This document shows, piece by piece, positions 17,645 through 20,434 of a stretch of 32,000 nt of DNA (position 1 is its first letter; the number at the start of each line of letters is the position of its first letter). The stretch is taken from contig OZ245817.1 in NCBI GenBank assembly GCA_965228475.1, positions 4,728,524 to 4,760,523 on the forward strand. Reading direction: 5' to 3'. This stretch comes from Myxococcota bacterium. GTDB lineage: Bacteria > Myxococcota_A > UBA9160 > JAFDDA01. The notes beneath the pieces were generated by a model that had not been told where the DNA came from, ran no database searches, and was given only the letters and a program-made list of their open reading frames with translations. The translations under genes were made by a program, and so were the position numbers.

Positions 17645-17670
17645 GTAACCGGCCGCGCGCCGGGTGCGTA
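17645..17670 (+). promoter_or_regulatory. candidate ECF-sigma-type promoter (GTAACC-N16-CGTA)
   Basis: GTAACC lies at 17645-17650, followed by a 16-nt spacer and CGTA at 17667-17670, about 50 nt upstream of the precursor ATG. It has the AAC-N16/17-CGT architecture of ECF promoters. Confidence 0.35.
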
Positions 17671-17719
17671 GTGGTTTGTGAAGCCGGAACACCGGCGAAA
17701 ATCCAACGAAGGAGACTCG

Positions 17720-17998
17720 ATGAAGACCCGAAGTGGCATGCTGGCCGCGGCCGCGGCCTCCCTGTTCATGGCCGGTGGCGCGGCCCTGGTGGCCGCCCCG
17801 GCGGCAGCGGAAGACAAGATCAAGTGCGAGGGCGTGAACTCCTGCAAGAGCCACAGCGATTGCAAGACGCTCTTCAGCGAGTGTGCCGGCCACAACGACT
17901 GCGCCGGCAAGGGTTTCAAGATGCTCACGCCGGAAGAGTGCGACGAGGCGAAGGCCGAGATGGCGCGCAAGGCCGGTGAGAGCAAGGACCGCATGTAG
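17720..17998 (+). CDS. bufA: bufferin-type RiPP precursor: Sec signal peptide plus a six-Cys core (DUF2282/BufA-like)
   Basis: The ATG at 17720 is preceded by AAGGAGA. The product is 92 aa. The signal peptide is MKTRSGMLAAAAASLFMAGGAALVAAPAAA/EDK. The core is EDKIKCEGVNSCKSHSDCKTLFSECAGHNDCAGKGFKMLTPEECDEAK..., with 6 Cys and two CxGxNxC motifs. The stop TAG abuts the ATG of the DUF692 gene. Confidence 0.8.
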   Translation: MKTRSGMLAAAAASLFMAGGAALVAAPAAAEDKIKCEGVNSCKSHSDCKTLFSECAGHNDCAGKGFKMLTPEECDEAKAEMARKAGESKDRM

Positions 17999-18886
17999 AT
18001 GAGCCATGCGCCCGGTACGCGGTCCGACGCCCCCTATCTCGGTGTCGGCGTCGGGCTGCGGCCGGTGCACTACGGCGAGCTGCTCTCGCGCGCCGCCGAA
18101 GGCCGGCTCGAGATCGACTGGGTCGAGGCCACGAGCGAGAACTACATGATCCCGGGCGGGCGGCCGCTGCGCATCCTCTCCGAGGTGCGCGCCGCCCTTC
18201 CCCTCGTTCTCCACGGCGTCTCGATGAGCCTCGGCTCGACCGATCCGCTCGACGCCGGCTACCTCGACGACCTCGACACCCTCGCCGCACGCTTCGAGCC
18301 GAGCTGGGTCTCGGACCACCTGTGCTGGACCGGCGTCGGCGGCCACAACCTGCACGACCTGCTCCCGCTGCCCTACACGGAGGAGGTCGTCCGCCACCTG
18401 GCCACGCGGATCCGGCGGGTGCAGGAACGCCTCGGGCGGCGCATCGCCGTCGAGAACGTCTCCTCCTACGTGAGCTTCGCGGCGAGCGCCCTCACGGAGT
18501 GGGAGTTCCTCTCCGCCGTCGCCGAAGAGGCGGACTGCGGAATCCTCCTCGACGTGAACAACGTCTTCGTCTCCGCCCACAACCACGGCTTCGACGCCCG
18601 CACCTACCTCGCAGCGATCGACCCGGATCGCATCTTCCAGATCCACCTCGCGGGGCCGAGCGAGGAAGGCCCGCTGCTCATCGACACCCACGACCACCCG
18701 GTGCGGGAAGAGGTCTGGCAGCTCTACGCGGAGCTCGTCGCCCGCACGGGGCCCGTCTCCACCTTGATCGAATGGGATGCGAACCTCCCGAGCTTCGAGC
18801 GACTCTGCCAGGAAGCGAAGCGGGCGCGCACGATCCTCGATGCCGAGGCAAGCGGGAGCGCCCGTGCAGTCGGAGCCCTCGGTTGA
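17999..18886 (+). CDS. bufB: DUF692 / MNIO (multinuclear non-haem iron oxidative) peptide-modifying enzyme, MbnB/BufB-like
   Basis: 295 aa with classic DUF692 blocks: GVGLRPVHY, IDWVEATSENYM, LHGVSMSLGSTDPLD, WVSDHLCW, HDLLPLPYTEE, ENVSSYV, EWEFL, CGILLDVNNVFVSAHNHGFD, IHLAG, IDTHDHPV, TLIEWD. Confidence 0.9.
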   Translation: MSHAPGTRSDAPYLGVGVGLRPVHYGELLSRAAEGRLEIDWVEATSENYMIPGGRPLRILSEVRAALPLVLHGVSMSLGSTDPLDAGYLDDLDTLAARFEPSWVSDHLCWTGVGGHNLHDLLPLPYTEEVVRHLATRIRRVQERLGRRIAVENVSSYVSFAASALTEWEFLSAVAEEADCGILLDVNNVFVSAHNHGFDARTYLAAIDPDRIFQIHLAGPSEEGPLLIDTHDHPVREEVWQLYAELVARTGPVSTLIEWDANLPSFERLCQEAKRARTILDAEASGSARAVGALG

Positions 18887-19687: not shown

Positions 19688-20434
19688 CTAGACCGCCGGG
19701 ATGTGCTCGCGAATCTCCGCGAGCACGCGGTCCGGGTGCGAGCGCACCTGGTAGTTCTCCGACTGATCGATCCAGCGCACGATCCCCTTCGCGTCGACGA
19801 GGAACGTCGTCGGGACGGGCATGCCGGTGACGCCCTTCGGCGTGATGCTGTTCGGGTTCCGAAGACCGTAGCGGTCGGTCACCGCGAGATCCGCGTCCGA
19901 GAGCATCACCGCGTTCGCGCCGTGCTTCTTGCGTCCCTTGCGGATCTCCGCCGGCGTGTCGCTGCTCACGGTCACGAGCGAGACGCCGTGGGCATCGAGC
20001 TCGGGCCGCATCTCTTCCCATCGCCGCAACTCGGCGACACAGTACGGTCACCAGTGGCCGCGGAAGAACTTCAGCAGGTAGGGCTTGCCCGAGAGGCTCG
20101 AGAGGGCGAACTCGGCACCCCCGTCGTCGACGGCGCTGAACTCGATGATGCGCTCGCCGACGCCGGTCTTCGGCGGCGTGCGCGACTGCCCCGCGAAGGG
20201 CTGCAGGAAGAGGAACGTGCCCGAGAGCGCGAGCGCCAGGCCCGCGCCGATCTTGCCGAGGAGGCCCGCGCCCGCCACGAAGGCGGTCACGGCGAGGAGC
20301 GCGCCGAGGCCCATCGCAGCGATCACGAGGCTTCGCACCTCGGCGGTGCGAACCGCCTGCATGCGCTGGAACCAGAGCGCGCCGGTGGCGCCGACCACCG
20401 TGACCGCGAGCAAGGCGAAGAGGTTGCCGTCCAT
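19688..20434 (-). CDS. membrane-anchored thioredoxin-fold redoxin (AhpC/TSA-like) with an in-frame TGA at the first Cys of the CxxC motif; candidate selenoprotein (UxxC)
   Basis: Track ORFs 20048..20434 and 19688..20029 are in the same frame. They are separated only by a TGA (20048-20050) and 6 sense codons. Read through, the junction is GKPYLLKFFRGHW-U-PYCVAELRRWEEMRPELDAHGVSLVTVSSD..., a textbook redoxin W-C-x-x-C context. GC3 is high on both sides. The downstream part has no RBS or ATG of its own. The N-terminus has about 3 TM helices. Confidence 0.6.
20019..20039 (-). promoter_or_regulatory. SECIS-like hairpin downstream of the in-frame UGA
   Basis: The mRNA reads UGA CCGUACUGUG-UCGCCG-AGUUG-CGGCGA-UGG. 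There is a 6-bp perfect GC-rich stem (20021-20037), extendable by two G.U pairs. The 5-nt apical loop contains GU about 18 nt after the UGA. Confidence 0.4.

Follow-up and report, generated by a model that had tools for sequence, protein, structure and literature searches.

The question raised by this locus is what kind of precursor is encoded by a short, cysteine-rich open reading frame on the plus strand of the 32,000-nt window, the whole stretch of DNA analyzed here. The earlier note had described the 92-residue product as a six-Cys variant with a duplicated CxGxNxC motif, which could either belong to the bufferin class with 6 or 12 cysteines or be an intermediate between this class and the DUF2282 precursors. 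The analysis indicates that the open reading frame is very probably bufA2, the gene of a Buf2-type bufferin precursor and the first gene of a bufA2-bufB-bufC operon. Judged from its sequence, the peptide is an ordinary BufA2 (Buf2, "6/12-Cys") precursor with the six-Cys pattern usual in the family, and not a new variant. The locus is one more Buf2-type bufferin operon, and as such it matters little beyond its correct annotation. The features of the locus are the following:

17645 to 17670, plus strand: ECF sigma-F-type promoter-like motif GTAACC-N16-CGTA, read from the sequence, 50 nt upstream of the bufA2 ATG
17709 to 17715, plus strand: Shine-Dalgarno sequence AAGGAGA of bufA2, read from the sequence, ending 4 nt before the ATG at 17720
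17720 to 17998, plus strand: bufA2 open reading frame, translating to a 92-aa peptide
17720 to 17809, plus strand: predicted Sec-type signal peptide of BufA2, residues 1-30, from the sequence and the homologue alignment, with putative cleavage after A-A-A
17810 to 17995, plus strand: BufA2 core peptide of 62 residues, from the NF050166 match and the invariant Cys
17825, 17843, 17861, 17882, 17900 and 17939, plus strand: first positions of the Cys codons in the bufA2 core
From about 17930, plus strand: C-terminal helix and tail of BufA2
17996 to 17998, plus strand: bufA2 stop codon TAG, abutting the bufB ATG
17999 to 18886, plus strand: bufB, MNIO (DUF692) bufferin maturase, 295 aa, from NF050167 and PF05114
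18883 to 19674, plus strand: bufC, DUF2063/HvfC-type partner, 263 aa, from PF09836, with a TTG start overlapping the bufB stop (TTGA)

The N terminus of the peptide contains Lys2 and Arg4 in the n-region, followed by a 20-residue hydrophobic core and by A-A-A before E-D-K, and in the alignment of BufA2 homologues the A-x-A preceding the core peptide is conserved. We infer that the precursor carries a Sec-type signal peptide, which would be cleaved after Ala30, between AAA and EDK. Numbered from this cleavage site, translation of 17720 to 17998 placed cysteines at mature positions 6, 12, 18, 25, 31 and 44, with the spacing x5, x5, x6, x5, x12, exactly as the earlier note had read them. Both copies of the CxGxNxC motif, CEGVNSC and CAGHNDC, are also present, and this duplication is a feature of the family.

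When compared to the NCBIfam model NF050166, "BufA2 family periplasmic bufferin-type metallophore", the peptide scored 75.9 bits (E 2.1e-21) against a curated cut-off of 60 bits, in an almost gap-free match of residues 7-80 to profile positions 3-77 of 79. A phmmer search with the peptide alone retrieved 70 relatives, among them a Sphingomonas protein named BufA2 by NCBI (E 3.6e-12), and NF050166 was matched by all 70 of these homologues. On the other hand, the peptide did not match PF10048 (DUF2282) in Pfam at either E≤0.01 or E≤10, nor did any of the 70 homologues match PF10048 in the current Pfam. The intermediate position between DUF2282 and Buf2 was rejected for this reason. Some database entries carry older, precomputed PF10048 tags. 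The NF050166 model found no match in the control genome of Caulobacter vibrioides, where BufA2 was defined, which may reflect the limit of the first-look filter for short genes.

The six cysteines and the Gly and Asn residues of both CxGxNxC motifs were invariant in an alignment of 30 sequences, and invariant or at least 90% conserved in an alignment of 70 sequences, which argues that the pattern does not arise by chance. Among 86 peptides from the best 80 genome loci, the spacing x5, x5, x6, x5, x12 was observed in 77, while seven had x13 in the last gap and two had x5 in the third. As these 86 peptides had been retrieved by sequence patterns, the count was repeated on other samples. The same spacing was found in 142 of 146 single-domain relatives obtained from two database searches, which also contributed 34 two-domain relatives with 12 cysteines, and in all six relatives retrieved by HMM from genomes of the same order. 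Hence, the spacing that had seemed unusual at first reading is the family norm and, together with the NF050166 match, it identifies the peptide as a standard BufA2 member. The peptide falls, at the family level, inside an already characterized precursor subfamily with the same Cys pattern, so that of the options offered earlier the 6/12-Cys bufferin class was the right one, while the variant and the intermediate were not borne out.

The family is large and widely distributed. A scan of species-representative genomes gave more than 600 pattern matches and 582 confirmed relatives in Myxococcota, Alpha-, Beta- and Gammaproteobacteria, Leptospira, Bacteroidota, Verrucomicrobiota and other groups, and a profile search returned at least 7086 clusters at E≤0.001; Caulobacter BufA2 was not among the best 120 matches of this profile search. 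Within the lineage of the host, about half of the relatives sampled from the same order (14 of 30) had a BufA2 match. One bufA2 homologue, from a Hyphomicrobiaceae MAG (L046:4001-4267), has an internal stop in the matched stretch and may be a pseudogene or an error.

The genes that follow bufA2 correspond to those of known bufferin operons. A DUF692/MNIO gene had been noted directly downstream, and indeed bufB begins right after the bufA2 stop codon. Its product scored 363.4 bits against NF050167, "MNIO family bufferin maturase" (MNIO_BufB), for which the cut-off is 310, and 358 bits against PF05114. The product of bufC scored 62.6 bits against PF09836 (DUF2063; cut-off 27.2), while its score against the NCBIfam model HvfC was below the cut-off (49 versus 142); the TTG start of bufC is supported by a tblastn alignment, from residue 1, to the called bufC of relatives. 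All close relatives have the genes in the order bufA2-bufB-bufC, as do 57 of the 80 genome loci, the remaining 23 loci being orphan precursor genes. When three close relatives were compared, conservation was limited to these three genes, and the flanks differed. The genome encodes one BufA2 and one MNIO protein (BufB), and a search for DUF2282 (PF10048) anywhere in it found none. There is no DoxX (bufD) gene after bufC, where the next gene is a convergent redoxin gene on the other strand, and DoxX homologues are encoded elsewhere in the genome.

The promoter-like motif upstream of bufA2 offers an explanation for how the operon may be controlled. In Caulobacter, the sigma-F site GTAACC-N16-CGAA drives the buf2 operon CC2907-CC2906-CC2905 (PMC3511200). 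The motif GTAACC-N16-CGTA was located 43-129 nt upstream of bufA2, with unrelated spacers, in all three close relatives. It was also present upstream of bufA2 in a spirochaete locus and in loci of Myxococcota, Sphingomonas and Sphingosinicella, and in three of six relatives of the same order. Overall, it occurred in 16 of 86 bufA2 upstream regions versus one of 86 random control stretches. A scan of the 5.0-Mb genome with the exact pattern yielded only five sites, and its reversed control none; a sigma-70 promoter scan of the bufA2 region found nothing. Besides the bufA2 site, the scan gave the following sites on C1:

744086 to 744111, minus strand: GTAACC-N16-CGTA
1373647 to 1373672, plus strand: GTAACC-N16-CGTA
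1776393 to 1776418, minus strand: GTAACC-N16-CGTA
1776490 to 1776515, plus strand: GTAACC-N16-CGTA

The five sites precede bufA2, an ECF sigma gene (C1:~1776526-1777155) followed by an NrsF homologue, a divergent second ECF sigma gene, a pair of genes for a thioredoxin-like and a DsbD_TM protein, and a radical-SAM/DUF3641 gene. As a set, these sites resemble a small stress regulon of the sigma-F-like type. The sequence data support sigma-F/NrsF-type control of bufA2 in trans, as for Caulobacter buf2, which would fit the previous observation that sigma and anti-sigma genes were not found inside Buf2 clusters (PMC12452194). Expression would then be triggered by metal or oxidative stress through the release of the ECF sigma factor from NrsF. 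Buf2 operons that have no sigma gene of their own thus seem to retain this promoter logic in different phyla. At the radical-SAM/DUF3641 site, the two domains of the expected single gene were found in two overlapping frames (L091:1538-2298; C1:~1373684-1374444), with the change of frame near locus nucleotide 1920. An assembly error, a frameshift or a pseudogene could account for this.

The founding member of the family is BufA2 of Caulobacter vibrioides, CCNA_03001 (YP_002518374.2; PMC12452194 Table S4), which was described together with bufB2 and bufC2 (Leprevost et al. 2024, PMC11626156; PMC12452194). The comparison with this system was made through the family HMM and the published description. 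Both precursors have a core of about 60 residues with six conserved cysteines, and a Sec signal peptide like that of the founding member is predicted for the peptide described here. The operon found here, bufA-bufB(MNIO)-bufC(DUF2063) without a DoxX gene, has the same composition as CCNA_03001-02999, which comprises bufA2-bufB2-bufC2 without bufD (PMC11626156), and the sigma-F-type promoter of the Caulobacter operon has its counterpart here in a predicted one, with sigF/nrsF genes located elsewhere in the genome in both cases. The host differs, as the operon described here resides in a genome of high G+C content, with Myxococcota or 'Deltaproteobacteria' MAGs as its nearest named relatives, and not in an alphaproteobacterium.

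An AlphaFold2 model of BufA2, built from the 70-sequence alignment, contained strands at residues 34-37 and 66-69 and a single helix at residues 71-90 running through the tail, with a mean pLDDT of 61.7. This predicted topology, which is of moderate confidence, agrees with the published bufferin fold (PMC11626156). In the model CysI belongs to the strand 34-37 and CysVI to the beginning of the helix 71-90, so that, as in Caulobacter Buf2, a fold of two strands and a helix is predicted to position the two outer cysteines for a disulfide. Relatives of solved structure were found neither by sequence profile nor by a fold search with this moderate-confidence model.

The BufA2 precursor can also be compared with two other groups of peptides that have MNIO partners. 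The Buf1 precursors (DUF2282, PF10048), represented by Caulobacter BufA1 with bufB1C1D1, follow the same RiPP logic as is predicted here, with a Sec-exported precursor, MNIO and DUF2063 partners, thiooxazoles and a role in copper buffering, and they have a related predicted fold in which the outer Cys pair forms a disulfide. However, they contain four cysteines and not six, and neither the peptide (at E≤10) nor the genome described here has a PF10048 match. Moreover, Buf1 operons usually contain a DoxX gene and often sigF/nrsF, while the present operon lacks both. The Lys-Cys 'captophorins' (oxazolin, fontiphorin and gonophorin; PMC13097082, PMC11252979) resemble it in having an MNIO enzyme with a DUF2063-type partner and in the conversion, predicted here, of Cys to a copper-binding heterocycle. 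They differ in consisting of unstructured EGKCG repeats with Lys before Cys, while in the peptide studied here Lys (or Ala) follows the Cys, and a small folded domain is predicted; tandem 5-mer repeats of the EGKCG type were not found in its sequence.

The earlier statement that it is unknown which cysteines are modified and which form disulfides was too strong, because these positions have been mapped in Caulobacter Buf2 by mass spectrometry (PMC11626156). In this protein CysI and CysVI are unmodified and probably form a disulfide, while each of the four central cysteines is lighter by 4.03 Da; the modification amounts to −16 Da in total and is accompanied by absorbance at about 305 nm (PMC11626156). 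According to the authors, the chemical identity of the Buf2 modifications is not yet established (PMC12452194). In the published labels CysI is Cys24 and CysVI is Cys50 (PMC11626156), which are 26 residues apart as compared to a family span of 38; since 50 minus 38 is 12, "Cys24" may be a slip.

By analogy to what has been reported on bufferin chemistry and function (PMC11626156, PMC12452194), the precursor would be bound in the cytoplasm by a complex of BufB (the MNIO protein) and BufC. This complex would oxidize the four central cysteines (mature C12, C18, C25 and C31) to 5-thiooxazoles, each in a four-electron step with a loss of 4 Da. The modified BufA2 would then be exported by the Sec system, with removal of the signal peptide after Ala30, and a stabilizing disulfide would link CysI (C6, in the first β-strand) to CysVI (C44, in the first part of the C-terminal helix). 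The resulting small folded protein would buffer excess copper in the periplasm. The C6-C44 disulfide, the four thiooxazoles and the periplasmic copper buffering are thus expected by homology. On this assignment the two CxGxNxC copies would be non-equivalent, as the first Cys of copy 1 would serve as a disulfide partner, while both cysteines of copy 2 would be modified.

Three traits are specific to the clade of the peptide, namely a longer tail, Ala in place of Lys after CysIV and CysV, and Ala in place of Asp after the catalytic Asp of BufB. The Lys/Glu-rich, helix-prone tail noted earlier is indeed present, and what the close clade adds is its extra length. The tail after CysVI has 18 residues, including five basic and five acidic ones, which is about seven more than the family median of 11. 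Tails of at least 18 residues were found almost entirely in close relatives, with 73-92% identity, and Met was the last residue in 17 of the 35 homologues with long tails. The longer charged tail is probably a clade-specific extension of the C-terminal helix of the family. Another influence on this region is suggested by a purine-rich Shine-Dalgarno sequence for bufB located inside the last four codons of bufA2. This sequence is AAGGAC here, and AAGGAGAAG, GGAAGAGA and GGAGAAG were found inside the bufA2 3′ end in four related loci (L083, L085, L086 and L087); in this locus (17975-17998) and in these four, the bufA2 stop and the bufB start either abut or are 2-4 nt apart. The last codons of bufA2 thus appear to double as the ribosome-binding site of bufB, which could explain at the nucleotide level a part of the Lys, Glu and Asp richness of the tail as well as its conserved ending. 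The Lys/Glu-rich C terminus of BufA2 would then be under a double constraint.

Other readings of the locus concern the start of the precursor, its modification by the neighboring genes, and the number of modified cysteines. An alternative start had been considered at 17678, as an upstream ATG that would abolish the signal peptide. The codon at this position is actually GTG, which is usable as a start and lies in a frame open from 17672, and translation from it would add 14 charged residues, thereby weakening or abolishing export. However, it lies two codons past an in-frame TAG without a Shine-Dalgarno sequence ahead of it, while the strong AAGGAGA precedes the ATG at 17720. In the 70-sequence alignment M1 is nearly invariant, and the Met encoded at 17720 corresponds to the first residue of essentially all homologues. 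Moreover, no more than about 8 nt separate the sigma-F-type −10 element (17667-17670) from the GTG downstream of it, and the predicted transcript would begin at this codon or a few nucleotides away. A start at 17678 is hence scarcely credible, and on the evidence of the Shine-Dalgarno sequence and of the homologues the 17720 start and the predicted signal peptide stand. It is also very improbable, although slightly less so, that the product is an unmodified, disulfide-rich secreted mini-protein that happens to lie beside an MNIO gene and is not part of a functional RiPP system. This could be suggested by the considerable fraction of Buf2-type precursor genes that have no adjacent MNIO gene, as in the 23 orphan loci and as described in the literature (PMC12452194), but here the bufA2 stop abuts the bufB ATG and bufB overlaps bufC, close relatives have nothing but the three-gene unit in common, and BufB scores above the bufferin-maturase equivalog cut-off.

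A reading which deserves somewhat more weight, but is still unlikely, is that the peptide and its close metagenomic relatives form a Buf2 subtype. In this subtype only C12 and C18, which are followed by Lys, would be converted to thiooxazoles, while C25 and C31, which are followed by Ala, would remain thiols or form a second disulfide, and the Met-terminated tail might add a ligand. If true, there would be two thiooxazoles only, or a different metal stoichiometry or specificity. Cys II-V are followed here by K, K, A and A, while about half of the family has Lys at all four sites, and the BufB motif I-E-W-D-A-N has Ala (Ala261) after the catalytic Asp, where 47 of 54 relatives have Asp. For "Cys-Lys" MNIOs, a contact between the latter residue and the Lys of the substrate has been proposed (PMC13097082). 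Among five close loci, fewer Lys residues after Cys went along with the loss of this Asp, a suggestive trend, and the Met-terminated tails of about half of the long-tailed homologues also speak for the subtype. Across the whole family, however, the BufB residue was not associated with the number of Cys-Lys sites (Fisher p = 1.0), and the covariation was rejected as a family-wide rule. Additionally, the Buf1 MNIO is documented to modify a Cys followed by Ala (CysIII-Ala32), the six cysteines and the Gly and Asn of both CxGxNxC motifs are invariant in the clade, and the bufB Shine-Dalgarno sequence inside the last codons accounts equally well for the conserved K-[DE]-x-M ending of the tail. The Cys-Ala sites and the Asp-to-Ala change in BufB are therefore treated here as ordinary variation within the family, alongside the longer tail, and the peptide as a standard Buf2 precursor. 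The modification of all four central cysteines is nevertheless less certain than in Caulobacter, given the Ala after CysIV and CysV and the Ala in BufB. The rule proposed for MNIO substrate selectivity could be tested on this natural combination of Cys-Ala sites and Asp-to-Ala change.

The genes flanking the operon were considered as conserved accessory genes, for example as a substitute for DoxX. These candidates, namely a selenocysteine redoxin, a TetR regulator and an upstream FAD oxidoreductase, were rejected. None of the three was found beside bufA2BC in the 80 genome loci or in the three close relatives, and they are not part of the system, as the flanks differ between close relatives. 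The redoxin gene, located at 19688-20434 on the minus strand, is of the AhpC/TSA type with a thioredoxin fold, and it contains a single in-frame TGA (20050-20048) at the first position of the redox motif W-U-P-Y-C. It also encodes N-terminal hydrophobic segments and has a hairpin just after the TGA. This gene likely encodes a selenoprotein. It converges on bufC, and its stop codon is separated from that of bufC by 13 nt.
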